From Spirochaetota bacterium (GTDB lineage Bacteria > Spirochaetota > JAHITG01), in NCBI GenBank assembly GCA_018817865.1, contig JAHITG010000292.1, forward strand, positions 1 through 46,626: a DNA stretch of 46,626 nucleotides, given 5' to 3'. The notes under the pieces are model-generated. The model saw nothing but the letters and a program-made list of their open reading frames with translations. It was not told the origin of the DNA and searched no databases. Of the stretch, positions 3,805 to 38,692 are shown one piece after another. How positions within the stretch are numbered: the first letter of the stretch is position 1; each line of letters opens with the position of its first letter. The position numbers and the translations under genes were made by a program.

Positions 3805-3806
3805 GT

Positions 3807-4217: not shown

Positions 4218-4261
4218 GTACCCTTTTCTGTAAGGATGGATCATCCTCACATTAAGCGCGA

Positions 4262-14196: not shown

Positions 14197-15006
14197 ATGA
14201 AAAGATCATATCAAATAGGATTGTTGGGCGTTATCGTGCTCCTGTTGAATATTTCTTCTTCTTTTGCCCGGATCAAAGTTACGCCAGCTGTTCAGCAGAT
14301 GGTACTGACCGCAGGAGAGGAGAGAGAGGTTTTTTTTGAGATCATGAATTCGGGACAGCAGGACCTGAAGATCACAATTGAACCGGAGGATTGGGGACAG
14401 ACTCAGGATCTAAAAGATATTACATGGACTAGATGGCTGGATCTCGACACACGGGGATTTCAATTAAAAGCCGGAGAGAAAAAGAGGATCTCATGCAGGG
14501 TCCATTTACCATCGGATATTACCCGGGAAGTGAATGCCATGGTATATTTTTCTTGTGAACTTCCAAGAAAAAACATAAGATTGAAGACCCGTGTGGGTGT
14601 TTCTCTTTTTGCCGGAAGAAAGGGGAATGAAAAAAAGAATATTGAAATTGAAAGTATAAAGGTCAGTAAATCTTCCGGCCTGAATCCTGCCTGTTATTTT
14701 GATATTACCCTTAAAAACAACGGGAATACTCATATTATACCACAGGGATATTTAATTCTCTCCAAACCGGATAATACCAGGGTCGCCTATCTCCCTTTAA
14801 GCAACATGGAGCCGGTAATAGCTGATGAGAAGAAAGTGTACCGGATCACCTGTAAGGAGAGTACCTTTAACGGAAATTATAAAGGAAAGATGATCATTAC
14901 GTATAAGGGGTTTCCTGAAAGAGCGGAATTTAAAAAAGTAAAAGAATTTTCATTTTTTATCAGCAGAAAAGAGGAAAAAAGAGGAAAGGCTTATTTTAAG
15001 GAATGA
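14197..15006 (+). CDS. Secreted two-domain Ig/beta-sandwich-like protein, periplasmic chaperone-like in pattern (269 aa)
   Basis: The signal is MKRSYQIGLLGVIVLLLNISSSFA. RIKVTPAVQQMVLTAGEEREVFFEIMNSGQQDLKITIEPEDW resembles the first strands of PapD-type chaperones, and a second half (IESIKVSK...FDITLKNNGNTHIIPQGYL) looks like a second sandwich. This is a pattern-level inference only. Confidence 0.5.
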   Translation: MKRSYQIGLLGVIVLLLNISSSFARIKVTPAVQQMVLTAGEEREVFFEIMNSGQQDLKITIEPEDWGQTQDLKDITWTRWLDLDTRGFQLKAGEKKRISCRVHLPSDITREVNAMVYFSCELPRKNIRLKTRVGVSLFAGRKGNEKKNIEIESIKVSKSSGLNPACYFDITLKNNGNTHIIPQGYLILSKPDNTRVAYLPLSNMEPVIADEKKVYRITCKESTFNGNYKGKMIITYKGFPERAEFKKVKEFSFFISRKEEKRGKAYFKE

Positions 15007-15008
15007 TC

Positions 15009-16265: not shown

Positions 16266-17573
16266 ATGAGATCAATTATATTTATATTAATATTTTCAAT
16301 ATTAATGAGCCTGTCCGGCAATATGTACGGTGATAATACACGTGTCTCTACAAGAGGAGCAGGGATCGTTATGATGGCTCTGGAACCACGGCCGATGAGC
16401 ATGGGAGGAGCGTTTACCGCTGTGTCTGATGATATCCATGCTCTTGTTTATAATCCGGCCGGGATAGGGCTGATCAGAGATCTTTTAGGATCAATATCCT
16501 ATCAAAAAGGGATCGAAGATATGCATTACGGTTCAGCCTCTTTAGTTTATCCAATAGGAAGACAGAGTGCTTTAGGGCTTAATTTTGGTTTTTTTCATCA
16601 GGGATTTTTTGATCTGTATCATCAGGAAGGAACTATTGAGCGCGGTTCTTTAGGGAACAGCTATAAACTGGGGTTAACCTACGGGATCCTTTTTAAGGAT
16701 AGTGACATTTCATTAGGTGCAACTTTAAAAATGATCAACAGTACATTATATACGTATTCCGCTTCCACCGGTGCTGTTGATCTGGGTCTGTTATATCATC
16801 CGTTATCAGCAGATTCAAAGAAAAACCGGTTTTCGTTTGGAATAGCTGTTTTAAATCTGGGTCCCGGTCTGAAATATATTGAAGAGGAAGACCCATTACC
16901 AACCGCATATAAATTGGGAATAGCCTATGCCTGTCATTTTAAAGCTGGAAAGACTCCTTTTAGACTGCTCTTTGCAAATGATATTATAAAGGATGATCAG
17001 TATGAAGGGCTCGGAGTGAATACAGGCATTGAGTTTAAATACCGTGATATTCTAATGGTCCGTGCGGGATATCAATTCAGGGGAGGGCTGGATCTTGATG
17101 ATGATAACGGATTTAATACGGGAATGGGTATCAATTACAGTGATCTTCAGTTTGATTACAGTTTTAAACTATCAAGCAGTGAATTGAATTCCACTTCTCA
17201 TTGTTTTTCTGTTTCATACAGGTTTTCATCTTCCGGGGAGAGAAGAAATAAAAAAAGTTCGCTCAGCTTAAAAAGATCCCTCGGCGAAGAACCTGAAGTG
17301 GAGGAAAAGAAGGTGGAGGATAAAGTAAAGACCATTAAATATTCCGATATACCCCTGTATAATAAAATAATTCTGGGTGTATCAAAAGGGCCCAGTAATT
17401 CAGGGAATAATTATAAGATACAGTATTCTACAAAAGAGACTCCGGACCAGAGCCCTGATTCAGAGGATTATAAAGGGAATGTGTTCGATGAGACCAGGGT
17501 GAAATGGGTTCGCTGGGTAGAGAAGAATAAAAACACTAATAAACCGGTATACTATAAAATTAGTATTGAATGA
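16266..17573 (+). CDS. PorV/PorQ-family outer-membrane beta-barrel with ~110-aa charged C-terminal extension
   Basis: The family signature is RPMSMGGAFTAVSDDIHALVYNPAGIGLI. Alternating beta-strand segments follow, ending in FSVSYRF. The tail SSGERRNKKSS...YYKISIE is of unknown type. Confidence 0.7.
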   Translation: MRSIIFILIFSILMSLSGNMYGDNTRVSTRGAGIVMMALEPRPMSMGGAFTAVSDDIHALVYNPAGIGLIRDLLGSISYQKGIEDMHYGSASLVYPIGRQSALGLNFGFFHQGFFDLYHQEGTIERGSLGNSYKLGLTYGILFKDSDISLGATLKMINSTLYTYSASTGAVDLGLLYHPLSADSKKNRFSFGIAVLNLGPGLKYIEEEDPLPTAYKLGIAYACHFKAGKTPFRLLFANDIIKDDQYEGLGVNTGIEFKYRDILMVRAGYQFRGGLDLDDDNGFNTGMGINYSDLQFDYSFKLSSSELNSTSHCFSVSYRFSSSGERRNKKSSLSLKRSLGEEPEVEEKKVEDKVKTIKYSDIPLYNKIILGVSKGPSNSGNNYKIQYSTKETPDQSPDSEDYKGNVFDETRVKWVRWVEKNKNTNKPVYYKISIE

Positions 17574-20327: not shown

Positions 20328-21983
20328 ATGAGAAGGATCTTATTCATTATAATAATTATTTTTTTAGCTTCAATTTCTTTATCTGCTGAGCTGTATACGG
20401 TCTGGACACAGCGTATAAATAGTCCGGGGTCCGAAGATGACAGCGGATACGGGATCGATGTGGATGATCTCGGTAATGCGTATGTGACCGGAAGAAAGCA
20501 TAACGGGCTGAATTTTGATTATTTTACGATAAAATATGACCCGGATGGAAATACGGTCTGGTCACAGGTTTATGATAACGGCCAGAGAGATGATGGCTAT
20601 TATGCCCGGATACGGTCATCCTATCTTTATATTACAGGGGCAAGTGATAATGGCGCTGATTTTGATTTTTGTACTGTGGTATATGACCTGAACGGGAACA
20701 GCACATTTACACAGAGGTTTAACAGTGGCGCGGCTGATTTCGGCCATGCTGTAACAGCGGATGATTCCGGTGCTATTTATGTAGCCGGTCCGAGTAATAA
20801 CTGGAACTATTTTTTAATTAAATATAACAGTGATGGAAGTACGAACTGGACCCGGTCCGGACCTGCAGGAAGGCCGTTCGGAATTGTATATGATAATACC
20901 GGATATGTATATGTGACAGGGTTCAGGGACGTCGGCCCTAATGTGGATTATTACACTGTGAAATACAGTACCAATGGAACAACAATATGGACACAGCAGT
21001 ATGACAGCCAGGCCGCTACTGATGATGCAGCGCATGATATTGTACTGGACAGCATTGGAAATGTTTATATAACAGGGTATAAGCTGAACAGTGATTTTTA
21101 TACTATAAAACTTGACTCTCTCGGGAATACGGTCTGGACTCAGGGATTTGACGGGGGAGGGATCGATTACGGCAGAGGCATTGATATCGGTCCGTTAGGA
21201 TATGTTTATGTCGGGGGATTCAAGCACAATGGTCTTAATTATGATTATTTTATTATAAAATATGATCAGAATGGCAATACGATCTGGACTCAAGGATATA
21301 ACGGCGGGAGTGATGACAGGATTGAAAGAATTGCGGTGGATAATAAAGGATTTGTTTATGCTACAGGATATAAAGATAATGGCGCGGATGATGATTTTTT
21401 TACTATTAAATATCTTCAGCCTCCTTATCCCACAGTACCCTCTTCTCTTTCTGCCTCTTTCATCTCGAAAAATGCTGCAACGATCAGCTGGCAGGATATG
21501 ACGATCAATGAAGAAGGATTCAAGATATACAGAAGCAGTGACAATCTTATCTTTAACCTGATAGGAACAGTTACAGCAGGCAGTACTTCTTTTCCTGATA
21601 ATACATTGGAAGAGGGATCATACTGGTACAGGATTGGAGCAACCAACAGGGCCGGCGAGATTACATCAATAACTTATAAATATACAGCCGGAGAGGCCTT
21701 TATCTCCACCACTCGTACAGGTGTTTATCCCAATTATTTTCAGATCGGACATGACCATGAAATAAAGATAGTCATAGCTGAGGCAGGATATGCCCGGATC
21801 AGGATATACAATATTGCAGATTCTCTTGTTAAGGATTATCCGGAACAATATTATCAGGCGGGAGCATATTCAGTATGGGATGGAAAAGGAGGAGTCGGAC
21901 AGGCTCTGGGCGCAGGTCTCTATTTTGTCGTGATAAAAGGGGAAAATGTAAATACCATATGTAAAGTGATCCTGAAAAGGTAG
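20328..21983 (+). CDS. SBBP-type beta-propeller repeat protein + FN3-like domain + T9SS-type CTD
   Basis: It has repeats such as DYFTIKYDPDGNTVWSQVYD, DYYTVKYSTNGTTIWTQQYD and DYFIIKYDQNGNTIWTQGYN. The FN3-like segment is ATISWQDMTINEEGFKIYRS. The CTD reads ARIRIYNIADSLVKDY...GAGLYFVVIKGENVNTICKVILKR. Confidence 0.8.
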   Translation: MRRILFIIIIIFLASISLSAELYTVWTQRINSPGSEDDSGYGIDVDDLGNAYVTGRKHNGLNFDYFTIKYDPDGNTVWSQVYDNGQRDDGYYARIRSSYLYITGASDNGADFDFCTVVYDLNGNSTFTQRFNSGAADFGHAVTADDSGAIYVAGPSNNWNYFLIKYNSDGSTNWTRSGPAGRPFGIVYDNTGYVYVTGFRDVGPNVDYYTVKYSTNGTTIWTQQYDSQAATDDAAHDIVLDSIGNVYITGYKLNSDFYTIKLDSLGNTVWTQGFDGGGIDYGRGIDIGPLGYVYVGGFKHNGLNYDYFIIKYDQNGNTIWTQGYNGGSDDRIERIAVDNKGFVYATGYKDNGADDDFFTIKYLQPPYPTVPSSLSASFISKNAATISWQDMTINEEGFKIYRSSDNLIFNLIGTVTAGSTSFPDNTLEEGSYWYRIGATNRAGEITSITYKYTAGEAFISTTRTGVYPNYFQIGHDHEIKIVIAEAGYARIRIYNIADSLVKDYPEQYYQAGAYSVWDGKGGVGQALGAGLYFVVIKGENVNTICKVILKR

Positions 21984-22089: not shown

Positions 22090-22569
22090 ATGAAAGTTTT
22101 AAAAGGCATACTTTTGTGTCTGATCTTCCTTTTAACAGAGTTAACTATTACGGCTGTATATGCCAAGAAGGTAGCCGTACTTCAGTACTATAAGGGAGAT
22201 GTATTGATCGAGCGCCATGTTATGAAGGGGAAATGGATGAAACCGAGGCTGAATGTAAAACTGGATGATAAGGACCAGATAAAGCTGGTTAAAGGTGGAA
22301 TAGCGAAACTCAAATTCATAGACGGGTCCATTGTAGAAATTAAAGAGAGTAAAATCTATCAAGTCGGTGATGTTAAAAATCTGGCAACGAGTAAGCGGAC
22401 CAAAGGAAAATCCGTCCTTTCAAAATTGAAATCACTGAAGAGTAAGCTTGGAAAAGGCGGAGGAGCAGACAAAGGAGGCCCGACAGCTGTTGCCGGTGTC
22501 CGCGGTGCTGATGTCTCTGAGAAATCCAAATCACCGGTTAAACCTTCTGAATTAGTCTGGGAAGAGTGA
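22090..22569 (+). CDS. Small secreted FecR-domain-like protein
   Basis: It has a signal peptide. KGDVLIERHV...LVKGGIAKLKFIDGSIVEIKESKIYQVG and TAVAGVRGADV resemble FecR-type beta-sandwich proteins. The assignment is weak. Confidence 0.4.
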   Translation: MKVLKGILLCLIFLLTELTITAVYAKKVAVLQYYKGDVLIERHVMKGKWMKPRLNVKLDDKDQIKLVKGGIAKLKFIDGSIVEIKESKIYQVGDVKNLATSKRTKGKSVLSKLKSLKSKLGKGGGADKGGPTAVAGVRGADVSEKSKSPVKPSELVWEE

Positions 22570-22783
22570 TAGGGAGAGGCCCGCACTTTATTCGTACTTG
22601 CATTTTATATTAGACAGTATTGTATTCTTATAGTTCAATTTAAATTATTTAATATTTATATTGCTTGTTTATGATAAAAAAAAGCCATATATCTTCAAAA
22701 TATTTTATTAAATATTCTATCCGCTTTTTACGGCGATCATTTTTCCCATATTTTATTTTTAATTCAATTGTGTGAGGTCTATC

Positions 22784-25700
22784 ATGAAAAAGCTATTATT
22801 GATAATATTGATTTTATCTTTTCCGGTCGCAGATGCAAGTTCCGCAATTATCTATTCCAATAATTTTGAATCGGATGACGGGGGCCTGATACAGATCGAT
22901 TGTATCAATTACAGCTGGGAGTGGGGGATCCCCAAATATGTTGGTCCTTCCAATGTTCCTTCGGGACAGCGATGCTGGGGAACCATAATTGAAGGGAATT
23001 ACGGCAGTTCCACAACGAACAGGGAGTACCTGGTTCTGACTAATGTTGATCTGACTTCGGTCTCCTATGCAGGGCTGGAATTCTGGCATTACTATAAATT
23101 TGATGATATGATGACCGATGATGCGGGCCGGGTGGAAGTATCGACCAATAGCGGTACCACCTGGTCTAATCTGGGGGATTATCCCTACGAGTACTCTCAA
23201 AGTTGGGTCATGGCTTTTAATGGTCCCGGTTATGCGCGTAATGAGGGGACGAATTGGCAGCAGGCTGCATTTGACCTGACCTCGTATGCCGGACAGAATA
23301 TCTGGATTCGATTCCGTTTCGAATCTGATTCATGGAATAATAACCATCCCGGATGGTATATAGATGATCTTGTGATCAAAGATATTCCCGTACCGATCGC
23401 CGGTACAGGGACCTCATCCAACATGCCTGTCAGTGTCTATAATAACAGCAGTAACGCCATTACATTTTATTATAAAGCGGAAAAAGGTATCTATAGCGGA
23501 AAAGTTTCCCTCGAGATCCCGGCAGGCTGGTCTGCTCCTCAGGACAGTAATGGTGCTTTAGAGGGGTATGTTCAGATCCAGTCCGGAACCGGTTCACCTG
23601 TTATTGCGCTAGACCCTGATATTGTTTTACGAACTATCACGGTCCAGATAACGAACATGAAACCTGGAGATGACCTGCGGATCATTTACGGGGCAGGAGC
23701 TGTGGGAGCCGTGGCTCCGTCTTCATACGGGACCTATAGTTTTACCATGCAATCCGGTAATATACTGGAAGGCATGGTGGACCTTGATGAATCACCCTGG
23801 GTCGCTGTTCAGCCTTTGATCGTACCGCCTTATTTCGAAAATTTTGAATCCGGTGTTGGCGGGCTTTATGCCACGGGTGAGAAGGCTCAGTGGGAGTATG
23901 GTACTCCATCCGGTGTTGGCCCTTCATCAGCACACAGCGGCAGTTCCTGCTGGGCCACTAAAATCTCAAGCTATTATGATATTAATTTCTGGAATCCGGA
24001 AAACCTGTATCTGCCACCCATTGACCTGACAGGGATCACCACCAATGTCTATATCAGTTTTTGGCACTGGTTTGAATTCTATTATGACAGGAACATGGGG
24101 CATGATGGATCTGCTATCTTTGCATCCACAAATGGCGGTACGAATTACTTTATCCTGGAAGCTCATTTAGGTACCAGGTATAATGATACATCCGATATGA
24201 TGCCACCATTCGGAATGGGAGGGACCTCACCTTATTGCTGGTCTTTAAAGAATTCCGGTTGGGAGCAGGTCTATGTGGATTTGACATCATTTACTAATAA
24301 GGTGGTTAATCTCTATTTTGCCTTTAAAGCAGGAAATTGGCAGTTCCCCAATTTTGCCGGTTATTATCTGGATGATATTGAAGTGATCGCCTCTACTCCA
24401 CCCGTTGCAGGATCAGGCCAGGGTTCTATCCAGCCTGCTGCGACTTATATCTCCTCAACTAATTATTATAAATTGAAATATACATCCGATACAGTGATCT
24501 ATAATGGAACTGTAACCGTTGATATTCCGGGCGGATGGACACCTCCACAGATGGCAATTCCGGCCAATCCTGGATATGTGTATATTGTTTCGACCAATTC
24601 TGCTGTAAAAATCAATAAGATCCCGGGAGTTGGGGGGAATACTATAACAATAAATATTACCAATATGCCGGCAGGAATGGATTTTGATATATGCTACAGC
24701 AATGCAGTGGCTCAAAACACCACGGGTCCGGCGCAATTCATTACACGATCAATGAGGCAGGGTGAAGTATTGACGCCAATAAATAAAACTCCTGAGGTCA
24801 GGGTCATGAACTTAATTTCATCTTTCCCCTGGTTCAGGGATTTTGAAGGTAATGACGGCAATCTCTCTACAGTAGGGAATCTCACTCCTTTCTGGGAGTG
24901 GGGTGTGCCCGGAGTCGGCCCAACAGGAGCTTATTCCGGATCAAGGTGCTGGGGAACCCTGCTTAATAGTACTCTCGATCCTGATTATCAGAATTACAGC
25001 CTGTATACCCCATTCTTCAATTTCAGTAATATTACAAATGCCATCATTGATTTTCAGTATTTTGCTGATCTTCAGGGATCCGGTTCTTTTGGTGCCCATT
25101 TTATGATCTCTACTAATAAGGGACAGACCTTTGAAGTCTTTGGTAAATATCCGACTGACTATGATGAGCAGTGGTTTTATTCTCCACCCCCCTATACTAA
25201 AAGTTATCCCGGGTGGGCTGATTCCACAACAGCATGGGAGCAGAAGATAATAGATCTTTCTTCCTTGTCCGGGAAGATCTTGCAGATGAGATTCAGGTTT
25301 GTAAATAGAGGGTGGGAACCGAACCATGCGGGATTTTATATTGATGATCTGTATGTAAAGAGAGATCGGCCGCCTATTGCCGGATCAGGAACAGCAACGG
25401 TTAATCCCAGTGTAACAGCTCCCAGTACCTCTGCTGATTATGCCTTTTTATATTTATCTGAAAAGAATTTTTATGATGGAAGTGTGACCTTTGAAATACC
25501 AAATAACTGGACAGCTCCTCAGAAGATATTTCCGGCTAATCCGGGATATATTAAGATCATATCCGTCTTATCCAATGCAAAAGTGAATTATGATCTGAAT
25601 ATTATCGGGGCAGGGCCTTGGATCGTAACGGTAACAGTGACCAATATCCCTGCAGAGGGCGGGTTCACTCTGGCCTACAGCAATGCTGTTTCACCGGCGC

Positions 25701-28700
25701 TGATCGGTGAATCAGTCTTTTCAGTACGATCTGCTCTGGATACGGAACCCCTGACAGAGATCAACAGCTCTCCTGTTATTGTTAATCTGAATACGATCTC
25801 GATACCTTTTACTCATACCTTTGACAGTGATAATGGAGGGTGGGTAGAAGCAGGAAGCACGCATGAACTCTGGGATTGGGGTATCCCTTCCTGGGGTCCT
25901 TCCTCGGCCCATTCCGGATCCAGGCTTTGGGGTACTGTACTGGATGATAATGTTAATGTACCGGGAGTATTGGACAAACTGACCTCTCCTATTATTGATC
26001 TGACCTCTGCTACCCAGGCCCATTTTGCCTTTTATCACTGGTATGATATGAGTGATATGGCTATGAGTGATATGGCCGGAAATGTGATGGTCTCTACCAA
26101 TTTTACTGACTTTGCGGTTCTAGGCAGTTATCCCAAGAACTATCCCAATTCCTGGGTCTTCAGCTGGTCCGGCCCGAAGAACGGTCAGGACGGATATTCC
26201 GGCATGGACTGGGAAAATCAGAAGAGATGGGAGAAACGCACTTTTAATTTATTGCCTTATGTAGGGAACAAGATTATTCTACGGTTTGACTTCGGATCAC
26301 GCCCTGCTGCCCCTCAACTGAATTCTCCCGGATGGTATATTGATGACGTCTCCGTACAGCCCACACCGCCTCCGATCGCCGGTACGGGAACAGCTACCAT
26401 TTATCCGGAATCAGCTATTGTGAATACGACCAATAATTATACGATCACCTATACGGCAAAAGAAGATATTTTTATCGGATCGATCGAGATCGACTTCCCG
26501 CACGACTGGTCTTTGATCCAGACCAATAATAGCAGCGGGCGAGGGTATGTATTTTTAGATACATTCAGCACGTTCACTTATAATCTGACTATAGCGAACA
26601 GTAATCGTCTGATCATAAATGTTCAGAACCTTGATTATAATGAGTCCTTCCAGATCAGATATAAAAAGGCAGTTACTCCGGCAGTAGCGGGAACCTATGT
26701 TTTTACCAATAAATCACAGGGATTCAGTGAGCCTATTACACCGATCGATAATTCACCTTCAGTGATCTGCCAGGAGATCCAGACCCTCCCTTATAAGGAG
26801 GAATTTGAATCCGGAAATGGCGGCTATATCTCAGAAGGGAACGATAAGCTGTTCGAATGGGGTACTCCGGCCAATGTAGGTCCGTCAGAGGCTCATTCCG
26901 GTATTAAATGCTGGGGAACAAAGATCAATCAGTTTTATAATGAAGATAACAGTTGGGAATATATGGTATCGCCTCCTTTTGATGTTACGGCTGAAACTCA
27001 GATATACTTCTCGTTTCATCATTATTTTGATTCGGAAGCGGATCCCATGAAAATGTTTCCCTGGGGAAGCGGTGACGGGGTAACTCTTGAGATCGCCAGT
27101 GCTGATACGCTGGCCGGCCTTACCACAGCCTCTTTTGAACAGGTTGGCAGTTATCCTCAGGTGTATAACCAGTACCTGGATAACCGGCAGTTCTGGGGAG
27201 GATTCAGCGGAGGATGGGTACGCCAGGAGATGAACCTTTCGCAGTATGGCGGAAAATATATTAAATTCAGGTTTTATTTCCACAGTGACTGGGACTATGC
27301 CAGCCTGCCGGGGTGGTATGTTGATGATATAAAGATAGATAATGTAACACCAAAGACACCGGATGTTCCTTTTGAAGATTCCGGTACTCACATCGGGCGG
27401 AATAATTCGTATGGAGTATCCTTTCTTGATTTTGATAATGACGGCGATTTTGATCTTATTGAGAACAACTACAAGCAGACCTATAATATCATATGGCGCA
27501 ATAACGGCAGCGGTTCTTTGTCAGAGTACAAGAGTATCGGTAAGAACAGCACCCGTGTAATACGATTTGCCGATTTTAATAATGACGGATTTTATGATGC
27601 TTTTGCCGGGAACTGCAAAGGGGAAATAGGAGAGTTGTCGGAACAGCCGAATGAGATCTTTATGAATGCCGGCGGGAAAGAGTTTGTTCTTAAACAATCT
27701 ATTGGAAATGATATAACCCGGGATGTGGCCTTATGTGATGTTGATAATGACGGTGATGTGGATATCTTTGTAGCCAACATAGGAGCAAATTCCCTTTATC
27801 TGAATGACGGGACCGGGAATTTTCAGGAGAGTGAAAATATCCTGACCGGAGGGAATACAACCGCTGCTTTATTTGCCGATTTTAATAATGATGCCTACAT
27901 GGACCTGGTCATCGGGAACAATGGAGGAGAAGCGAACCGGTTACTGATGAATAACGGGAGCGGCGGGTTTTCCGATTCCGGCCAGTCCATGGGCAAGTAT
28001 GAAACGACTTCCCTTGATGTCGGGGATATTGACCTGGATGGAGATCTGGATATCGTCTTCGGTACCAGGACCCTTATAAAGATATGGACGAATAATGGAT
28101 CTGCAGGTTTCGGATCTGCCGGAAGTTCACGGTTCCAGGCACGGAGTATAGATTTTGTTACTAATGACACAAAAGATATGAAGCTTGCTGATGTAGATAA
28201 TGACGGTGACCTTGATATCCTTTGTGCTAATGAATATGATACGGATATGGTCTGGCTTAATAACGGGTTCGGGACATTCAAGGACAGCGGGAATTATCTC
28301 GGGAGTTATGCATCCAAACGAATGTCTGTAGCAGATTTTAACAGGGACGGCCTTCTGGATTTTGCCGTTGGAAACAGCTTTGACCAGCCGGATATCATAT
28401 GGTTGAATAAGATGACCAACAACAACATCAACCGGGCGCCCTCACCGCCAAAAGTCCTTGAAGTGGAATTCAGCGGTAATGAGGCTATCATTACCTGGAG
28501 TTCGGGAACGGATTCCGAGACTCCTATCAGTCATCTGACCTATAACCTGAATATCGGTACCAGTCCTAATGGTAATGATATCCTCTCTGTTCCGGTGAAA
28601 AAGGACAGCTATTATTTCAACGGACCGGGGAATGTCAGAATGGCTAAAGTCTCGGGGGGAAACCGCATCTGGAGGATCAAGAACCTGACCAAGATCTCTT

Positions 28701-29092
28701 ATTACTACTTCAGTGTCCAGACGATTGATGAGGGATTTATGGGTTCAACATGGCTGACAGCTTCGTATTATCATGATCCCAAAGCTCCCGGAGTGGATGA
28801 TTTCAAGACTTCTGATAATTTTCTGAATCTGGATGACGGACAGGAGTGTATTATAACGTATAACCTCGGGCAGGCTTCTAAAGTAACCATCGAGATCGTG
28901 AATCTTGAAGGGACCATTGTGAAGACCCTGCTGAAAGATGTTCAGAAACCGGCCGGGTATCATCCGTATACTCATAAAGAGACATGGAAGGGTATCAATG
29001 AAGCAGGGACAAAGATAGCTCCCGGGATCTATTGGGTCTTTGTAAAGACCGATCACTGGGTTAAAAAGAAACGTGTTTTGATCGTATGGTAG
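22784..29092 (+). CDS. Giant (2102 aa) T9SS cargo/adhesin: 5 x [MAM/choice-of-anchor-J-like sandwich + Ig-like module] + 7-blade FG-GAP/VCBS propeller + FN3 + CTD
   Basis: The ATG at 22784 (MKKLLLIILILSFPVADA) is preferred over the GTG at 22772. A motif set recurs five times: FE(S/G)xxGG...WEWG(I/T)P..GPS.AHSG..CWGT...GWYIDD(L/V), each followed by P(I/V)AG(T/S)G...P.GW(S/T).PQ. The seven DxDxDG-type blades are FDNDGDFD, FNNDGFYD, VDNDGDVD, FNNDAYMD, IDLDGDLD, VDNDGDLD and FNRDGLLD. The CTD reads KVTIEIVNLEGTIVKTLL...PGIYWVFVKT...RVLIVW. Confidence 0.8.
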   Translation: MKKLLLIILILSFPVADASSAIIYSNNFESDDGGLIQIDCINYSWEWGIPKYVGPSNVPSGQRCWGTIIEGNYGSSTTNREYLVLTNVDLTSVSYAGLEFWHYYKFDDMMTDDAGRVEVSTNSGTTWSNLGDYPYEYSQSWVMAFNGPGYARNEGTNWQQAAFDLTSYAGQNIWIRFRFESDSWNNNHPGWYIDDLVIKDIPVPIAGTGTSSNMPVSVYNNSSNAITFYYKAEKGIYSGKVSLEIPAGWSAPQDSNGALEGYVQIQSGTGSPVIALDPDIVLRTITVQITNMKPGDDLRIIYGAGAVGAVAPSSYGTYSFTMQSGNILEGMVDLDESPWVAVQPLIVPPYFENFESGVGGLYATGEKAQWEYGTPSGVGPSSAHSGSSCWATKISSYYDINFWNPENLYLPPIDLTGITTNVYISFWHWFEFYYDRNMGHDGSAIFASTNGGTNYFILEAHLGTRYNDTSDMMPPFGMGGTSPYCWSLKNSGWEQVYVDLTSFTNKVVNLYFAFKAGNWQFPNFAGYYLDDIEVIASTPPVAGSGQGSIQPAATYISSTNYYKLKYTSDTVIYNGTVTVDIPGGWTPPQMAIPANPGYVYIVSTNSAVKINKIPGVGGNTITINITNMPAGMDFDICYSNAVAQNTTGPAQFITRSMRQGEVLTPINKTPEVRVMNLISSFPWFRDFEGNDGNLSTVGNLTPFWEWGVPGVGPTGAYSGSRCWGTLLNSTLDPDYQNYSLYTPFFNFSNITNAIIDFQYFADLQGSGSFGAHFMISTNKGQTFEVFGKYPTDYDEQWFYSPPPYTKSYPGWADSTTAWEQKIIDLSSLSGKILQMRFRFVNRGWEPNHAGFYIDDLYVKRDRPPIAGSGTATVNPSVTAPSTSADYAFLYLSEKNFYDGSVTFEIPNNWTAPQKIFPANPGYIKIISVLSNAKVNYDLNIIGAGPWIVTVTVTNIPAEGGFTLAYSNAVSPALIGESVFSVRSALDTEPLTEINSSPVIVNLNTISIPFTHTFDSDNGGWVEAGSTHELWDWGIPSWGPSSAHSGSRLWGTVLDDNVNVPGVLDKLTSPIIDLTSATQAHFAFYHWYDMSDMAMSDMAGNVMVSTNFTDFAVLGSYPKNYPNSWVFSWSGPKNGQDGYSGMDWENQKRWEKRTFNLLPYVGNKIILRFDFGSRPAAPQLNSPGWYIDDVSVQPTPPPIAGTGTATIYPESAIVNTTNNYTITYTAKEDIFIGSIEIDFPHDWSLIQTNNSSGRGYVFLDTFSTFTYNLTIANSNRLIINVQNLDYNESFQIRYKKAVTPAVAGTYVFTNKSQGFSEPITPIDNSPSVICQEIQTLPYKEEFESGNGGYISEGNDKLFEWGTPANVGPSEAHSGIKCWGTKINQFYNEDNSWEYMVSPPFDVTAETQIYFSFHHYFDSEADPMKMFPWGSGDGVTLEIASADTLAGLTTASFEQVGSYPQVYNQYLDNRQFWGGFSGGWVRQEMNLSQYGGKYIKFRFYFHSDWDYASLPGWYVDDIKIDNVTPKTPDVPFEDSGTHIGRNNSYGVSFLDFDNDGDFDLIENNYKQTYNIIWRNNGSGSLSEYKSIGKNSTRVIRFADFNNDGFYDAFAGNCKGEIGELSEQPNEIFMNAGGKEFVLKQSIGNDITRDVALCDVDNDGDVDIFVANIGANSLYLNDGTGNFQESENILTGGNTTAALFADFNNDAYMDLVIGNNGGEANRLLMNNGSGGFSDSGQSMGKYETTSLDVGDIDLDGDLDIVFGTRTLIKIWTNNGSAGFGSAGSSRFQARSIDFVTNDTKDMKLADVDNDGDLDILCANEYDTDMVWLNNGFGTFKDSGNYLGSYASKRMSVADFNRDGLLDFAVGNSFDQPDIIWLNKMTNNNINRAPSPPKVLEVEFSGNEAIITWSSGTDSETPISHLTYNLNIGTSPNGNDILSVPVKKDSYYFNGPGNVRMAKVSGGNRIWRIKNLTKISYYYFSVQTIDEGFMGSTWLTASYYHDPKAPGVDDFKTSDNFLNLDDGQECIITYNLGQASKVTIEIVNLEGTIVKTLLKDVQKPAGYHPYTHKETWKGINEAGTKIAPGIYWVFVKTDHWVKKKRVLIVW
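26048..26077 (+). repeat. 15-bp tandem duplication inside the giant gene (ATGAGTGATATGGCT / ATGAGTGATATGGCC)
   Basis: The two units are adjacent and match at 14/15 positions. They are in frame and encode MSDMA-MSDMA in module 4. Confidence 0.9.
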
Positions 29093-29108
29093 AGGAGGAT
29101 CAGGAATT

Positions 29109-31481
29109 ATGAAAGGTTTATGGAGAGCATTATATTTTCTGATAATACTTATATTTTATTCAGGTCTGGCTGCACAGGATTATTCGACTTCTGTAGGCAG
29201 GTTTCTCCTGCTTTCGGGAGGAGCCAGGGCCGGTGCAATGGGCGGAGCCTACTCTGCCGTGGCAGAAGATGCCTCTACCATAAACTGGAATCCGGGCGGC
29301 CTGGCCTTTATTAAGGGATATGAGATATCCTTTATGCATATGATGTATGATGAAGATATATTATATGAAAATGCTTCCGCTACGCTGCCTCTGGATTTCG
29401 GAACATTTGGACTGAATTTTATTTACATGGGAATGTCACCTCTGGCTGAAATGGCAAATGGGGACCTGACCGGTAAGGAGCTGGATTATTCTGATATGGC
29501 TATCTCTCTCTCCTTTGGAAGGGAGTTCTTTAATATGGTCGGGATCGGTGCCAATGTAAAATATATAAAAAGCTCAATGGGAATTTCTGACACGGCAGAT
29601 TATTTTACGGGACAGGGCATAGCCTTTGATATCGGCCTTCTTTCAAGGTTCGATCTGTTCAGATTCTATAATAAAATCGAAAAGAACCTGCGCGTGGGGA
29701 TTTCTCTTCAGAATATCGGGACCGGCCTTAAATACATTACATCAACCCATTCCTTTCCTACGGTCATTAAACCGGGCCTTTTTTATAAACCGATCAAGTA
29801 TGCAGAAGTGGTCTTTGATTATAATATCATCAGTGATTCTCCCAATACCATCAATATCGGGCTGGAAGCCCTTCCGGAATGGATCCTGTCCCCACGTGCC
29901 GGTATTAAGATAAAAGATTCCATCAAGACGTTTACATTGGGAGGAGGCTTAAAATACGGATTTGGAAGCTTCTTTTTTCAGCTGGATTATGCCTATAATA
30001 CGGATGATTATTTTAAAAATCATATGATCAGTATAGCGATCAGAAAATTCACGGCATCTTTAGCGGAATTCGGTTTCGGGAATATCATTATAAAAGATGT
30101 TTTCCCGGCCATGTATAAGTATTATACAAAGAACTCGGTATCGGATGTGGAAGTGAAGAATGATACTAATATTCCTATTGAAAAGATAAAGGTCTCCATG
30201 CTTGTAAATAAGTATATGGATTTTCCTTCCGAAAGCAAGGAGGTTGAGCGGTTACCCTCCGGTGATACTATTGTTGTAAAGCTTCCTGCTGAATTTAACA
30301 ATGAAATTCTAAATATATCCGAAGATACCCCCATGCAGGCGCAGATTAAGATAGATTATGTGGCTGAGGGAAAACGGCATCAGATCTCTCAGACAAAATC
30401 ATTTAAACTCTTTAACCGGTATGCCATGACTTGGGATAATTTTGATAAATTGGCAGCATTTGTTACACCAAAGGACCCGCCTGTAAAAGTTTTTGCCCGG
30501 GGCATGGTCCAGCAGTACAGCACCATAAGGATCAAGGACCTTCCCCGTTCTATTGTACAGGCCTCCGTTATTTTCAATGCTTTAGGAGCTGTAGGTATCA
30601 CTTATGTCCTTGATCCGCAGAGCCCCTACAGGCAGAGGCAAAAGGCAACCGAGATCATAGATCAGATCCAGTATCCGCGGGATACCTTGCGGTATAAAAC
30701 AGGGGATTGTGATGACTGCTCCGCCCTTTACTGTGCTTTGCTGGAGAATATAGGACTGAACACGGCATTTATTGATATTCAGGATCACATCTTTATGATG
30801 TTTGATACCCAGGTACCGGAGGAAAATGCTTTGGAGGAGTTCGGTAAGAGGGACCTCTATGTTATTAAAGATGGTACCGCGTGGCTTCCCATAGAGACGA
30901 CAATGTTCAAAAAGGGATTTTCAGATGCCTGGATCACGGCAGCGAATGAGTATCTTGAAGCTTCGGAAAAAGGCATTGTTACGATCGTTGATGTTAAAAA
31001 AGCCTGGGAGACATTCTATCCCGTAACATTACCTGATATTCAGTGGGAACCGCCTTTCCCTTCAAAAAGCAGCATGGAGCTTTTTCTAAATAAAGACAGG
31101 AGGAGATTCGGCAGTCTGGGGGTAAAAGGATTGATCAATGAATTACGGATACAGCTTGCCAGAAATCCGCGTGATGTGGACATATTGAACAGGCTGGCCG
31201 TAACGTACGGCAGGATCGGCAAGGTAAAGATCTCTCAGAGGTATCTGGAAATGATATTGGAGCAGAAGCCCAATAAAGCAAAATATTTTAATAACCTGGC
31301 CAATACCTATTTTCTCGATAATAAATTAAATGAAGCGCTTATTTACTATAAACAGGCGATCAAACTTGAACCGGATAACCCGAACTACAGGATCAATATC
31401 TCTAACCTGTACAGCGTCATGGGGGAGAAGGACAGGGCTGAAGAAGAGATGAAGAAGGCTGAAAAACTTCTTGAAGAATAG
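29109..31481 (+). CDS. Fusion protein: PorV/PorQ-family barrel + middle beta-rich region + transglutaminase-like Cys-protease core + C-terminal TPR repeats (790 aa)
   Basis: The RBS is GAGGAGGA, and the gene starts 16 nt after the giant cargo gene. The barrel signature is GARAGAMGGAYSAVAEDASTINWNPGGLAFI. The TGase-like core is GDCDDCSALYCALLENIGLNTAFIDIQDHIFMMFD...GTAWLPIETT (Cys, His, acidic residue). The TPR segment is AKYFNNLANTYFLDNKLNEALIYYKQAIKLEPDNPNY. Confidence 0.75.
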   Translation: MKGLWRALYFLIILIFYSGLAAQDYSTSVGRFLLLSGGARAGAMGGAYSAVAEDASTINWNPGGLAFIKGYEISFMHMMYDEDILYENASATLPLDFGTFGLNFIYMGMSPLAEMANGDLTGKELDYSDMAISLSFGREFFNMVGIGANVKYIKSSMGISDTADYFTGQGIAFDIGLLSRFDLFRFYNKIEKNLRVGISLQNIGTGLKYITSTHSFPTVIKPGLFYKPIKYAEVVFDYNIISDSPNTINIGLEALPEWILSPRAGIKIKDSIKTFTLGGGLKYGFGSFFFQLDYAYNTDDYFKNHMISIAIRKFTASLAEFGFGNIIIKDVFPAMYKYYTKNSVSDVEVKNDTNIPIEKIKVSMLVNKYMDFPSESKEVERLPSGDTIVVKLPAEFNNEILNISEDTPMQAQIKIDYVAEGKRHQISQTKSFKLFNRYAMTWDNFDKLAAFVTPKDPPVKVFARGMVQQYSTIRIKDLPRSIVQASVIFNALGAVGITYVLDPQSPYRQRQKATEIIDQIQYPRDTLRYKTGDCDDCSALYCALLENIGLNTAFIDIQDHIFMMFDTQVPEENALEEFGKRDLYVIKDGTAWLPIETTMFKKGFSDAWITAANEYLEASEKGIVTIVDVKKAWETFYPVTLPDIQWEPPFPSKSSMELFLNKDRRRFGSLGVKGLINELRIQLARNPRDVDILNRLAVTYGRIGKVKISQRYLEMILEQKPNKAKYFNNLANTYFLDNKLNEALIYYKQAIKLEPDNPNYRINISNLYSVMGEKDRAEEEMKKAEKLLEE

Positions 31482-34694: not shown

Positions 34695-36653
34695 TCATTT
34701 ATTTATTGCTTCAATTTTTTTCAGAATGTACATGGATGTTTTATCCAGCAGTAAAAAGAGGTTTTTATCTACACTTCCCTGGATCTGATCGGTGACCAGG
34801 ATCTCTCCGCTGTCGATATTGACCAGGCTGATATTTATTCTTAAACCACCTTTACTGTAAATATAGCTTCCTGTAATCAGGGTGTCGATATTCCAGAATT
34901 CCTTTAAAAGTTTTACCAGATCACTTTTTTTAAAGTCGGAATTTTTTACGGAGAGTGCTCCTATTCTATTCTTAATGATCCTTCGGTCTATTACCTTTAA
35001 GTTCTTCTGCCTGGCCAGGTGCGTAGCTATGGATTCGGGAATGGTGTTCGAAAGGTATCCGAAATCTTTGATCCGGGATGTGTTTTCAAAATTGAAGAGG
35101 GCGATCCGTCTGATCTTCTGATCAGCTGTTTCATCGGATCTGATCAGCTTCTGCATCTTTAATTCCTGTTTTGCTTTTTCCAGCTCCAGCCGGGTCTTTA
35201 CTTCTATGTTCTCCGGATCGATCCGGAGTGCTTCTCCCCATTCTTTGATGGCTTCTGAATGCCCTTCTTTGATGCTGGCATCCAGCCCGCTGAAATAGTG
35301 ATCCTCAAATTTTTCTTTTTCTTCTTCCTTCCATCGTTTCAGGAGGATCTGGTACTTGTATCCATCCAGGCCTTTCTCTTTTTTATACAGTTTGTAAGAG
35401 ATCCTGTCTTTTTGTACATCCTTTTCCATTAAATACTTGCATATCAGTAAGGCCTGTTCTTTTAATTCTTCCAGGTTCTGCTTCCTGTTTGTGATCGGGG
35501 TCATGGCAATGACATTTTTATAATCCTCATCTTTTATCAGTTTCGCGATCTGATCCAGTATTTTCGTTGTTTCTGTATCAAGCATAGATCCGTCTTTACC
35601 GGTTAATTCAGACTTGTTTATCTTGAAAGATATCTCATCCCGCGTTTCTCTGATCACGATATTTCTGTTTTTGTATTGCTCGATCTTCTCCTCACTATAT
35701 GTACGTACTGGAGCCAAGAGCAGGGTCATCTGCAGAAAATGGGATGTCCCTTCCTCAAGCAGAGAGATCCCGTAATCAAGCCTGATCCCGGCTTTACCTA
35801 AAAAGCGGGTTTGCAGAAGATCATCTTTTCCGATCCCAATTCCGAAATTAATTCTGTCCTCATCTCTGCCGAAGAGGTAGTATCCGCCTCTTAAAAAGAG
35901 AACGTCCAGGTAGCCCAGCTCCAGTCCTGCTGAAATATATTGGCTATTGTATTTGGAAAGGAAGGTATAGGTGCTTCCCAGTTTTGCTTCAATTGTATTA
36001 AAAATTTTCAGGAATTTATAGACAAACCCGGTATAGACCGAAACAGGATATGTATATGCTCTCTGGTCGAATCCGGTCTTAATGATATTCAGATTTTGTA
36101 CTCCCAGACCCATGTTCAAGTTTCTTTTTTCATTGATGTTGATCCCTTTTACTGTTACGGGTATGATCCCCGAGAGACCTGCACCCAGCCAGTTTCCGGT
36201 ATATCCTCCCAGATCTGTGGACATATATTTTAGATTGGCTCCCAGAAGGATATTTTTAAATATCTCCCTGCCATATCCCAGATTGAGCATTATCTCAGAA
36301 CTGGAAACATCCCCCAGGATATTTCCGCTTGGATCATAATTTTTTATTGCATCCAGGGAGCCGAAGATGATCGTACCGCCGATCACACCCAGTTTTGTAT
36401 CAGCGGCACAGCCTATCCTCTGGATGGTGAGCGTATCCTGCCATCGTAAATAATTAAAGCTGATAGTATGACCATTTAGACCGGCCAGGGAAGCGGGAAA
36501 AATGTCAATATTATTTTGATCACTCCTCTCCACAAGCAGTGATTCGGCTGTTCCATATAGTCGGCTGTTGTAATGGGGGAAATCCAGTAAAATAGCTGCT
36601 TGAATGAGCGCTGTCTGGCATAAAAAACAGATGATAATGATGATCTTTTTCAT
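34695..36653 (-). CDS. Fusion protein: PorV/PorQ-family barrel + OmpA-like segment + TPR-like segment + C-terminal LpoB/CsgG/TolB-N-like alpha/beta domain (652 aa)
   Basis: The barrel region is paralogous to 29109-31481: FPASLAGLNGHTISF...GYGREIFKNILLGANLKYMSTDLGG versus NPGGLAFIKGYEISF...SFGREFFNMVGIGANVKYIKSSMG. The middle segment is ISFKINKSELTGKDGSMLD...ILDQIAKLIKD. The C-terminus is IALFNFENTSRIKDFGYLSNTIPESIATHL...TLITGSYIYSKGGLRINISLVNIDSGEIL. Confidence 0.65.
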   Translation of the reverse strand: MKKIIIIICFLCQTALIQAAILLDFPHYNSRLYGTAESLLVERSDQNNIDIFPASLAGLNGHTISFNYLRWQDTLTIQRIGCAADTKLGVIGGTIIFGSLDAIKNYDPSGNILGDVSSSEIMLNLGYGREIFKNILLGANLKYMSTDLGGYTGNWLGAGLSGIIPVTVKGININEKRNLNMGLGVQNLNIIKTGFDQRAYTYPVSVYTGFVYKFLKIFNTIEAKLGSTYTFLSKYNSQYISAGLELGYLDVLFLRGGYYLFGRDEDRINFGIGIGKDDLLQTRFLGKAGIRLDYGISLLEEGTSHFLQMTLLLAPVRTYSEEKIEQYKNRNIVIRETRDEISFKINKSELTGKDGSMLDTETTKILDQIAKLIKDEDYKNVIAMTPITNRKQNLEELKEQALLICKYLMEKDVQKDRISYKLYKKEKGLDGYKYQILLKRWKEEEKEKFEDHYFSGLDASIKEGHSEAIKEWGEALRIDPENIEVKTRLELEKAKQELKMQKLIRSDETADQKIRRIALFNFENTSRIKDFGYLSNTIPESIATHLARQKNLKVIDRRIIKNRIGALSVKNSDFKKSDLVKLLKEFWNIDTLITGSYIYSKGGLRINISLVNIDSGEILVTDQIQGSVDKNLFLLLDKTSMYILKKIEAINK

Positions 36654-38692
36654 TTTATTAAATAGAACATGGCCCTCTTATTATTGATCCTGACGCTATA
36701 CTGTCCGGGGGGAAGAAATCTAAGGTTCTGTACATCATATTCATAAGCACCGGTGCTTAAGTCAGCACCATTGATCTCCTTTACAATATCTCCCCTCAGG
36801 TTGCAGATCCGGATATCCGTATCCTGCTTTCCGTTCCTGTATACGATGATCATTCTGGTGACTTCATCTGGTTTTACCATGGTAGGATAGACAGCTATAT
36901 CCTCTGCTCCTTTTAGAACCGTATAAAGTGCCTGATTGGTTTTACTCATATTATAGTATCGGTCCCTTGCGTAATAGGAAAGGGTGTATTCATATCCGGC
37001 AGAGAGAGGGATATCCAATGTTGCCGTTCCTGAAAGAGTCCTGTCAGCAACATTATTGCGAAAGACCGTAACAAATATAATGGCTGTTGTATCGACAACG
37101 GTCATACTCTGATCTTGAAAAACCGAAAATCGAAGGATGATATCACCAAAGTATTTCCCGGGTAATTTGTCCGGGGCAACCGAAGGGGAGATATATTCCT
37201 GAGGTTTGATAAAGCCGGACTCCAGCCACCCCATGTCCGGATCAAAACTGAAAAAAGCATCCGTGATCCCGGGAATGTTGGTGCCGCTGTCGATCACCGG
37301 GCTCTGTCCGAAGATGATGCGGTAATCACCCGTTGTATCTAAAAACGGGTTTTCAGTGATATTATGACTGCCCCAGAGGACCGGGCCGTTGGTCAGGTCT
37401 GTTCCGTTCCCGTAAAAGTCATTGTAATCTGCATATACGCTTCCCATGCTGGCATTTGAGATGCCGAAAAATGTATTGGAGAGAATAATGTTATTGAAAA
37501 GGAAACCGCTTGTATCATTTTTCCAGATTAGGCCGTTTGGTGAAAGAGAGATCGTATTATTGATCACTGCTAAATTTGTTACACTGCTTTCACAATAGAT
37601 TCCCGAGCGGTTGTTGCTAATGATAAGATTTCTATATATTATATTACTGTTCCCATGCTGTGCATAAATGCCGTCATACTGATTTTGGATGATCTGATTG
37701 TATTTTATAATATTATTTGTGGCTTGAAATAACCTGATGCCATAATCCTGTTGATTACCGGTACAGCGGATTATGTTCGATACGATCGATGCGGAATACA
37801 TGCCGTCCTCAATATATATTCCGCCCCAGTAACTGTCACCTATTAGTGAGTTGCCTCTGATCCGGAGGCCTCTTGTGCCTGAAACACGAATCCCGGTACG
37901 GCTGTTGTACAACAGCTGATTATTTTCCACCAGGCCGTTGTCAGAGCCAATATCGATACCATCCAGGCCTTTCATTATTGTATTATTCATAATATGGGCA
38001 GACTGGCCTCCGCTTATGATCGATTGAGATTTCATGTTGGATATGAAATTATTAATGATGTAATTATTAGTTGAACTATCGAAAAATATACTTACTAAAA
38101 GATCATAAAAAGAATTTGAGGCTATTATATTATTATCACTGAATGCCATGCGGATTCCGTAACTATTGGTTGATGGCCCAAAGAGATTGGAGGCAATGAA
38201 ATTATTATCTGAGTCTAAACCTTGAATTAAAACACAATAGAAATTGGAAAAAAGCGTGTTTTTAACAATAATGTTATAAGCAGAATTATTATCTATATAG
38301 ATTCCTTCATTTATTGCATTTTTGATGATAAACCCTTTGATCCTGATATAACTTTTACCATCCAGGTGAAAACATTCTGTTGATCCTGTTCCGTCCACTG
38401 TGGCCTGCCTTTCCTCGTATGCCGTAAAAGTGATATAATTCCCGGGATTTCCACTGTTGGGTATTTTAATCTGTTCGTTATAAATGCCGTTGGAAACAAT
38501 GACAGTGTCCCCGGCAAAGGCATTGGTGGCGGCATGTCCGATCGTCTGCCAGGCCTGGGCCCAGTTGGTCCCGTCAGCTATGTTAGAGCCGTTCGTCTTT
38601 ACATAAAAGAGTGTGGCATAGGATGGGACTGTTTCAACAACAGCGAGTAAAATGATAAAGGGAAAAAACAGAATAGATTTGAGCCGGGACAT
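36650..38692 (-). CDS. Right-handed parallel beta-helix (pectate-lyase-fold/NosD-like) surface protein with T9SS-type CTD (680 aa)
   Basis: It has many N/I/G-rich approximately 22-aa turns (NNIIASNSF, NNYIINNFIS, NIIYRNLIISNN, and others). The CTD reads RMIIVYRNGKQDTDIRICNLRGDIVKEI...PGQYSVRINNKRAMFYLIK. It overlaps the downstream barrel gene by 4 nt. Confidence 0.75.
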   Translation of the reverse strand: MSRLKSILFFPFIILLAVVETVPSYATLFYVKTNGSNIADGTNWAQAWQTIGHAATNAFAGDTVIVSNGIYNEQIKIPNSGNPGNYITFTAYEERQATVDGTGSTECFHLDGKSYIRIKGFIIKNAINEGIYIDNNSAYNIIVKNTLFSNFYCVLIQGLDSDNNFIASNLFGPSTNSYGIRMAFSDNNIIASNSFYDLLVSIFFDSSTNNYIINNFISNMKSQSIISGGQSAHIMNNTIMKGLDGIDIGSDNGLVENNQLLYNSRTGIRVSGTRGLRIRGNSLIGDSYWGGIYIEDGMYSASIVSNIIRCTGNQQDYGIRLFQATNNIIKYNQIIQNQYDGIYAQHGNSNIIYRNLIISNNRSGIYCESSVTNLAVINNTISLSPNGLIWKNDTSGFLFNNIILSNTFFGISNASMGSVYADYNDFYGNGTDLTNGPVLWGSHNITENPFLDTTGDYRIIFGQSPVIDSGTNIPGITDAFFSFDPDMGWLESGFIKPQEYISPSVAPDKLPGKYFGDIILRFSVFQDQSMTVVDTTAIIFVTVFRNNVADRTLSGTATLDIPLSAGYEYTLSYYARDRYYNMSKTNQALYTVLKGAEDIAVYPTMVKPDEVTRMIIVYRNGKQDTDIRICNLRGDIVKEINGADLSTGAYEYDVQNLRFLPPGQYSVRINNKRAMFYLIK

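Follow-up and report, generated by a model that had tools for sequence, protein, structure and literature searches.

What might an outer-membrane barrel of the type known to bind C-terminal sorting domains (CTDs) in the secretion system termed type IX (T9SS) be doing in a spirochete, and what would an enzyme-like domain built into the same polypeptide act on? The question is raised by a 790-aa protein, hereafter the fusion protein, encoded on a contig of a Spirochaetota metagenome-assembled genome; the window analyzed here is that complete contig of 46,626 nt. A first-pass annotation made from the sequence had described one polypeptide of three parts, a PorV/PorQ-type barrel, a transglutaminase (TGase)-like core, and tetratricopeptide repeats (TPRs). 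It had proposed that this protein, encoded behind a 2102-aa CTD-bearing cargo, could combine a cargo shuttle with a CTD-processing or attachment device. The open reading frame (ORF) is single and continuous and holds all three parts, but an immunoglobulin (Ig)-like sandwich at residues ~321-434 had been overlooked, giving five parts in the order signal peptide, barrel, Ig-like sandwich, TGase-like core, and TPR repeats. The account we prefer, put forward tentatively as somewhat short of an even chance, is that an OmpA-style barrel docks its cognate CTD cargo while a periplasmic Ig-TGase-TPR tail, active as a thiol protease or transamidase, works where the outer membrane faces the periplasm, most likely on the cargo or its anchor.

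The fusion is conserved. The survey for the same architecture that the first-pass annotation had recommended returned twelve full-length homologues, sharing 45-73% identity, on independent contigs (ENA, JGI, Logan, and NCBI). Further barrel fusions with far more divergent barrels (P0031, P0077, P0148, P0165, and P0093) turned up when 1.84 billion representatives were searched, and a metagenome scan contributed two further short barrel-fusion loci and nothing else new. In a scan of GTDB species genomes, only non-barrel paralogues were found, in Spirochaetota and Nitrospirota.

By profile scores and predicted structure, the N-terminal domain belongs to the FadL/PorV/PorQ (UPF0164) family, as a plugged barrel of 14 strands. 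When the profile check proposed for it was run, the barrel passed the subfamily-level NCBIfam model PorV_fam (NF033709; 142.3 bits against a cut-off of 90, residues 30-306). It likewise passed Pfam UPF0164 (PF03687; 42.5 bits against a gathering threshold of 21.4, residues 31-231), which we take to be the Pfam family of spirochete (Treponema) FadL-like outer-membrane proteins, and, narrowly, Pfam PorV (28.4 against 27). The AlphaFold2 (AF2) model of the fusion protein, with a mean predicted local distance difference test score (pLDDT) of 84, contains 14 barrel strands whose lumen is predicted to be plugged by the N-terminal segment 31-67 (pLDDT ~87-93). Its best Foldseek matches in the PDB were PorV structures (8gl6_F and 6h3i_F; E 3e-11 and 3e-10, TM-scores 0.65-0.69), followed by FadL, TodX, and TbuX. 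The last barrel strand ends in K313-F314 (...RKF314), which is invariant among homologues and looks like an internal beta-signal. The equivalog models for PorV (NF033710; 68.2 bits against 250) and PorQ (NF033711; 62.6 bits against 220) were both failed. Hence, orthology to PorV or PorQ is not supported by these profile scores, and the earlier label holds for the broad family and the fold but not at the ortholog level.

For the middle part, Cys, His, and an acidic residue had been read in the canonical TGase order, and comparison across the family bears this out. Among 38 diverse family subdomains (at most 58% identical to one another), 36 matched Pfam Transglut_core (PF01841) at E≤0.1, with a best value of 6.6e-6; other profiles matched were DUF553 (32 subdomains), the CEP76 peptidase (6), and Transglut_core2 (4), and no unrelated family recurred among the profile matches of this set. 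One relative (P0060) scores 22.9 bits on Transglut_core and some others (P0201, P0209) carry precomputed PF01841 assignments. The Transglut_core check suggested by the first-pass annotation supports homology at the level of the family; the window protein itself stays below the threshold. Cys534, His560, and Glu596, the putative triad, are retained in 174/174 family representatives together with the flanking GDC and WxPxExT motifs, so that the catalytic residues, whose failure to align had been named as fatal to the idea, align throughout. In the AF2 model, Cys534 opens a helix (534-546), His560 opens a strand (560-570), and Glu596 lies just past a strand (590-595), positions that point to the papain/TGase topology; the third residue is Glu, where Asp is usual. 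Foldseek searches with a model of the middle domain retrieved TG2 and yeast PNGase (3esw, 1x3w) over 247-261 columns (probability 0.98-0.99, E 5e-4 to 2e-3), intermixed with Ig-fold matches due to the sandwich domain, while no informative match was obtained against viral structures and PADLOC matched only the TPR region of the fusion protein. Judged from family profiles and predicted structure, the middle part is a divergent, probably active TGase-fold thiol enzyme with Glu as its third residue. The C-terminal repeats were confirmed by seven Pfam models, TPR_17, TPR_2, TPR_1, TPR_8, TPR_19, TPR_10, and TPR_11, all of which exceed their cut-offs over approximately residues 690-785.

Directly upstream lies the gene of a giant secreted or surface protein that carries, behind a signal peptide, MAM/choice-of-anchor-J domains and FG-GAP repeats and ends in a sorting-like domain. 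Its stop codon (29090-29092) is separated by 16 nt from the ATG of the fusion gene, and because this gap contains an AGGAGGA Shine-Dalgarno sequence, the start assigned to the fusion gene has good support and the pair looks co-transcribed, probably as one operon. An orthologue of the giant protein with the same CTD was found directly upstream of the fusion gene at 7/7 loci having upstream DNA (the window, L001-L004, L014, and L015); genes downstream of the fusion gene were not conserved among the loci. The 2102-aa neighbor of the first-pass annotation is real, but its CTD only resembles that of T9SS cargo. By sequence comparison the likeness is real though below threshold, as on FlgD_ig (23 bits against 27). 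The choice-of-anchor J domain of the giant protein (38.6 bits against 30) presumably accompanies, as we take its NCBIfam naming to indicate, alternative C-terminal sorting signals.

A hidden Markov model (HMM) built from five orthologous CTDs detected this domain at the end of each of two further ORFs in the window, encoding proteins of 413 aa (E 1e-15) and 551 aa (E 3e-6), which score 21.5 and 19.4 bits on TIGR04183, both below the cut-off of 23. The 413-aa gene is followed after a 21-nt gap by the gene of a 435-aa stand-alone PorV/PorQ-family barrel. Hence, this contig holds two instances of a CTD protein paired with a PorV-like barrel. Given the strict linkage to a CTD-bearing giant protein at all seven loci, gene order makes a functional link of barrel, enzyme, and cargo plausible.

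On which side of the membrane would the enzyme work? As in OmpA, the part of an outer-membrane protein that is C-terminal to an even-stranded barrel lies in the periplasm. Since the barrel has 14 strands, holds the N-terminal hatch in its lumen, and closes with a beta-signal-like end before the soluble part begins, the predicted structure most likely has the enzyme facing the periplasm. The first-pass annotation had staked its idea on the face of the membrane, and the predicted plugged barrel probably places the enzyme on the wrong one for it. The cassette is also found behind 8-strand OMP_b-brl barrels in a large Spirochaetota class, which fits a module at the inner face of the outer membrane. 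In T. pallidum, the C-terminal TPR bundles of three FadL-like outer-membrane proteins were assigned presumptively to the periplasm (PMC8407342). Export of a C-terminal passenger through the barrel, in the manner of inverse autotransporters, was considered and rejected, the barrel being of the FadL/PorV type with its lumen filled by the hatch.

Those T. pallidum proteins (Hawley et al. 2021, PMC8407342) share with the fusion protein a spirochete host, a 14-strand FadL/PorV barrel with an N-terminal hatch, and a C-terminal alpha-helical TPR part, and the window protein passes Pfam UPF0164. What sets it apart is an insertion of ~320 aa between barrel and TPRs, made up of an Ig-like domain and the TGase-like core with Cys-His-Glu, together with the linkage to a giant CTD-bearing protein; neither feature is described in that paper (PMC8407342). 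OmpA-type bipartite proteins are similarly built, with an N-terminal barrel bearing an internal beta-signal and then a C-terminal periplasmic domain; the window barrel differs in being 14-stranded and plugged, and its periplasmic part would be an enzyme with TPRs rather than a peptidoglycan-binding domain.

The closest precedent for pairing a CTD protein with a barrel is type B CTD cargo with PorP/SprF. Type B cargo, including the giant adhesin SprB, is genetically linked to and bound by cognate PorP/SprF barrels, and PorP also recruits PorE, an outer-membrane-associated periplasmic protein (PMC9143113, PMC12618676). As in the SprB-SprF example, the spirochete cargo gene is linked to its own outer-membrane barrel; unlike there, the barrel and CTD belong to other families and the barrel carries a fused enzyme, whereas the PorP/SprF systems need a full T9SS (PMC9143113, PMC12618676). 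No PorP/SprF model occurred among the Pfam matches of the fusion protein or among its listed NCBIfam matches (25 of 26).

Based on the strict synteny and on the PorV-CTD and PorP/SprF-CTD precedents, the barrel would be the cognate partner that docks or shuttles the C-terminal sandwich of the co-transcribed giant MAM/FG-GAP surface protein, and the 435-aa stand-alone barrel would serve the 413-aa CTD protein encoded before it in the same way. The soluble Ig-TGase-TPR part would hang in the periplasm under the barrel, where the TPR and Ig domains could recruit a substrate and, as the least certain step, the TGase-like domain would cleave or transamidate a protein on the periplasmic side of the outer membrane. 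Its likeliest substrate would be the cargo or its anchor, whose maturation, retention, or release might be controlled in a LapG-like way. LapG acts on the giant adhesin LapA and controls its release. The likeness to LapG and other BTLCP periplasmic cysteine proteases would lie in a TGase-fold thiol enzyme acting in the periplasm at the outer membrane; the differences are Glu rather than Asp as the third residue and the fusion to barrel and TPRs. A further difference lies in LapA, the anchoring of which is N-terminal and goes through a TolC-like pore. No LapD-like partner gene was seen in the window, and a Legionella LapG-type chain (4u65_E), matched at the Cys motif, was the only protease-like PDB sequence match (E 0.33, not significant).

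Relatives of the enzyme part were collected with a profile of residues 318-660, which matched 5,119 clusters at 50% identity with E≤1e-3, 1,782 of them with E≤1e-30. Most members of this Ig-TGase-TPR cassette family have signal peptides. The N-terminal partners of the cassette include NHL propellers with fn3 domains (~1,250 aa), fn3 alone (~625 aa), additional TPRs in Spirochaetota genomes (~1,000-1,200 aa), and an 8-strand OMP_b-brl barrel of ~200 aa. The last, ~700-aa class comprises 976 matches at E≤1e-20, many labeled Spirochaetota, and 2/8 of its tested N-termini exceed the Pfam cut-off for OMP_b-brl, with four more matching weaker. Given so many alternative N-terminal modules, the cassette is an autonomous module that works independently of a PorV-type barrel, and N-terminal barrels of two unrelated kinds have repeatedly tethered it to the outer membrane. 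Proteins with a barrel and TPRs without the enzyme occur as well (P0027 and P0028).

At 5/14 loci, a class III adenylate/guanylate cyclase is encoded no more than a few kb from a cassette gene, and two of these cyclases have CHASE2 sensors; no cyclase gene is present in the window. Cyclases are common in spirochetes, and their proximity may be chance or may hint at signaling. Behind the two barrel-TPR genes without the enzyme, sCache_3_2-HAMP-SpoIIE-HATPase_c_2 sensor genes follow with overlapping stop and start codons (L023 1769-4198; L024 2265-4592), a hint that a signal from the envelope may reach a partner-switching phosphatase through some of the barrel-TPR proteins.

Several observations weigh against the preferred account of cargo docking and periplasmic processing. 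The window protein fails Pfam Transglut_core, with 14.5 bits at full length and 17.2 for the subdomain against a cut-off of 23, and PDB sequence searches with full-length, middle-domain, and TGase-subdomain profiles gave only TPR and PorV matches, none being significant for the enzyme part. The CTD of the giant protein fails TIGR04183 (16.3 bits against a cut-off of 23). The inter-domain arrangement of the AF2 model is unreliable (predicted TM-score 0.45), so that the topology rule is all that fixes the membrane face. Were the cargo CTD to end up beyond the outer membrane, as it does in T9SS, an enzyme in the periplasm could reach it only before or during export. When the 8-strand-barrel class was examined for a conserved neighbor or partner gene, none was found and CTD cargo was absent next door; NHL-class cassette genes adjoin unrelated genes, and because thousands of cassette proteins are without a CTD cargo neighbor, the substrate of the cassette need not be the cargo. 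Finally, the Ig and TGase parts align to the N-terminus of the NCBIfam model antiphage_ProA (NF058533, 1903 positions), the first ~300 positions of which cover residues 343-634 (30135..31010; E 9e-18). The fusion protein scores 63 bits on this model against a cut-off of 1500, and by this alignment the same cassette would form the N-terminal part of a very large protein whose name marks it as an anti-phage factor; literature searches on a "ProA" anti-phage protein returned no usable paper.

In a rival account, the barrel is a mere outer-membrane anchor and the cargo not a substrate at all. The cassette would then have a general task in the envelope, such as remodeling or cross-linking outer-membrane or periplasmic proteins or relaying an envelope signal to inner-membrane sensors; it would be attached to any outer-membrane anchor available in a given lineage, and its linkage to the giant protein would reflect co-regulation. 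We regard this alternative as rather unlikely but as the most serious one. It draws on the fusion of the cassette to 8-strand OMP_b-brl barrels, NHL propellers, fn3 domains, or TPRs, on its >5,000 clusters at 50% identity, and on the unconserved neighbors of the 8-strand class. It draws, too, on the class III cyclase/CHASE2 genes near cassette genes (L001, L002, L005, L011, and L012) and the sCache-HAMP-SpoIIE sensors that follow the barrel+TPR relatives. Mere co-regulation is harder to reconcile with synteny to a CTD-bearing giant protein that holds at 7/7 loci across 45-73% identity and with an operon-like gap. The barrel is, moreover, of the type known to bind CTDs in T9SS, a second pair of CTD protein and barrel lies in the same window, and the window lacks a cyclase gene.

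Carrying the preferred reading of docking and processing further, Spirochaetota might possess a minimal CTD-sorting device independent of T9SS, in which each CTD cargo is paired with its own PorV-like barrel and the barrel of the giant adhesin carries a TGase-fold transpeptidase or protease that matures, releases, or covalently attaches the cargo. We consider so complete a device unlikely. If it existed, a single polypeptide built on another enzyme fold would be the functional analogue of PorV+PorU (or of LapG), and the T9SS attachment complex might have in it a relative or a precursor.

A one-piece counterpart of PorV and PorU in the strict sense, with the barrel as shuttle for CTD cargo and a TGase-like domain exposed on the surface that cuts off the CTD and attaches the cargo like a sortase, is distinctly unlikely. 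This is close to what the first-pass annotation had imagined, and several of its elements stand: the fusion is genuine and conserved, the triad is intact and invariant, PorV is the best fold match and the barrel passes the family model, and the always adjacent cargo ends in a CTD-like sandwich. TGase-fold enzymes, moreover, can catalyze transamidation. The remaining elements do not. Following 14 strands and a plugged lumen, the enzyme would be periplasmic, whereas PorU, a gingipain-like (C25) peptidase of a different fold, sits and acts on the cell surface. The curated PorV, PorQ, and TIGR04183 cut-offs were failed, and the cassette is widespread without CTD cargo. Where Bacteroidota divide the two functions between PorV and PorU, here they would share one polypeptide. 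The PorU-type T9SS_sortase model (NF033707) was absent from the 25 NCBIfam matches listed, of 26, for the fusion protein, and a weak match to the C-terminal region of PorU came only from the giant-protein CTD. The host is a spirochete, and T9SS has been described as restricted to the FCB group; among the ORFs of the 46.6-kb contig, the sole part of the genome covered, no match to the T9SS core families SprA/Sov, PorK/L/M/N, PorU, or PorZ was found.

It is very unlikely that the TGase-like domain is a non-catalytic scaffold and the protein a FadL-like transporter with a periplasmic interaction tail, the role suggested for the T. pallidum FadL-like proteins. The UPF0164/FadL-like barrel with its hatch and NPGGL motif, the precedent of TPR tails in T. 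pallidum, and the sub-threshold Pfam score of the TGase core would suit such a pseudo-enzyme, but full retention of Cys, His, and Glu in 174 representatives together with the GDC and WxPxExT motifs is what an active site would be expected to show. An artifact of two genes joined by a frameshift or chimeric assembly, which the first-pass annotation had listed as a risk, has practically no probability and was ruled out, the ORF being continuous and the same fusion occurring in ~15 contigs of varied samples and sources, including those with the divergent barrels P0093, P0148, and P0165.

Each ingredient of the locus is of a known kind: spirochete FadL/PorV barrels that have periplasmic TPR tails, thiol enzymes of the TGase fold, and pairs of cargo and cognate barrel. 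In the literature searched, what is new is the enzyme cassette fused behind a barrel, its strict link to a CTD-bearing giant protein, and its occurrence in Spirochaetota. Searches for a TGase-like domain together with PorV, TPR, or defense systems found no description of the architecture, in agreement with the first-pass annotation, whose author was not aware of one. The analysis defines a large Ig + TGase-like Cys-His-Glu + TPR cassette (>5,000 clusters at 50% identity) that neither Pfam nor NCBI annotation covers. Spirochetes and other phyla have repeatedly attached it to their outer membrane, and the public names of such proteins go no further than "TPR repeat protein" or "PorV/PorQ family protein." That a PorV-like barrel is so strictly paired with a giant protein bearing a CTD, although T9SS is not known from the phylum, raises the question of whether PorV-type barrels can recognize CTDs outside that system and what role a periplasmic thiol enzyme might have at such a barrel. 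Spirochete FadL-like outer-membrane proteins are targets in vaccine and physiology research, and a catalytic tail would change how their C-terminal extensions are read.

Table 1. Coordinates of the fusion gene, its parts, and associated genes. Positions refer to the window unless another locus (L number) is named.
Feature	Position	Strand	Details
Whole fusion ORF	29109..31481	+	790 aa, ATG start; MBU1077409.1, NCBI name "PorV/PorQ family protein"
Shine-Dalgarno sequence AGGAGGA	29093..29099	+	9 nt 5' of the fusion-gene ATG
Signal peptide	29109..29174	+	Residues 1-22, ...GLAA/QD; AF2 helix 2-20, then a low-pLDDT stretch
N-terminal hatch and 14-strand PorV/FadL-family barrel	29175..30050	+	Hatch residues ~27-67 (GARAGAMGGAY...NWNPGGL); strands 70-314
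Ig-like beta-sandwich	30069..30410	+	Residues ~321-434; DSSP strands; sandwich domains of PapD, LEA, and TG2 matched by Foldseek
Divergent TGase-like (papain-fold) core	30426..31028	+	Residues ~440-640
Putative triad	Cys534 30708-30710; His560 30786-30788; Glu596 30894-30896	+	Within the TGase-like core
TPR region	31065..31475	+	Residues ~653-789; eight helices in the AF2 model
Giant secreted/surface protein	22772..29092	+	2106 aa from GTG, or 2102 aa from ATG at 22784
CTD of the giant protein	28811..29089	+	~93-aa beta-sandwich, FlgD-Ig-like, T9SS-type-A-CTD-like; ends ...KKKRVLIVW
413-aa protein with the same CTD class	15003..16244	+	First gene of the second cargo+barrel pair; CTD HMM
435-aa stand-alone PorV/PorQ-family barrel	16266..17573	+	MBU1077404.1; PorV_fam 162 bits against 90; barrel HMM E 3e-28
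551-aa SBBP/delta-60 beta-propeller protein, same CTD class	20328..21983	+	No barrel gene adjacent
Third PorV/FadL-like barrel gene	34695..36653	-	652 aa; MBU1077415.1 "hypothetical"; barrel HMM E 2e-15
Cyclase gene	L001 12422-12886		Near cassette gene
Cyclase gene	L002 13194-15242		Near cassette gene
Cyclase gene	L005 7906-9948		Near cassette gene
Cyclase gene	L011 5065-5667		Near cassette gene
Cyclase gene	L012 5780-7447		Near cassette gene

The giant protein itself varies among loci. Its internal MAM/FG-GAP units are repeated in varying number; the orthologue at L001 exceeds 3,400 aa, and at L002 the protein is split into two adjacent ORFs (914-2905, 663 aa; 2916-7199, 1427 aa), both homologous to that of the window. 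An ORF of ~150-160 aa precedes the giant-protein gene in the window (22090..22569, +) and at L002 (170-613); its match to an Lsa33-like adhesin is weak (E 9e-6), and it may be a third member of the gene cassette.

Scans of the window for tRNA genes and Rfam families were empty. The 652-aa protein encoded on the minus strand joins an N-terminal barrel to a C-terminal FlgO domain (Pfam 37 bits) and is thus another fusion of a barrel with a periplasmic module in this contig. Other large secreted or envelope proteins encoded in the window include a GH113 protein of 870 aa (17624..20236, +), a 1191-aa protein with TPRs and a polysaccharide deacetylase domain (5404..8979, +), and a NosD/beta-helix protein of 680 aa (36650..38692, -), and the contig is rich in cell-surface functions.

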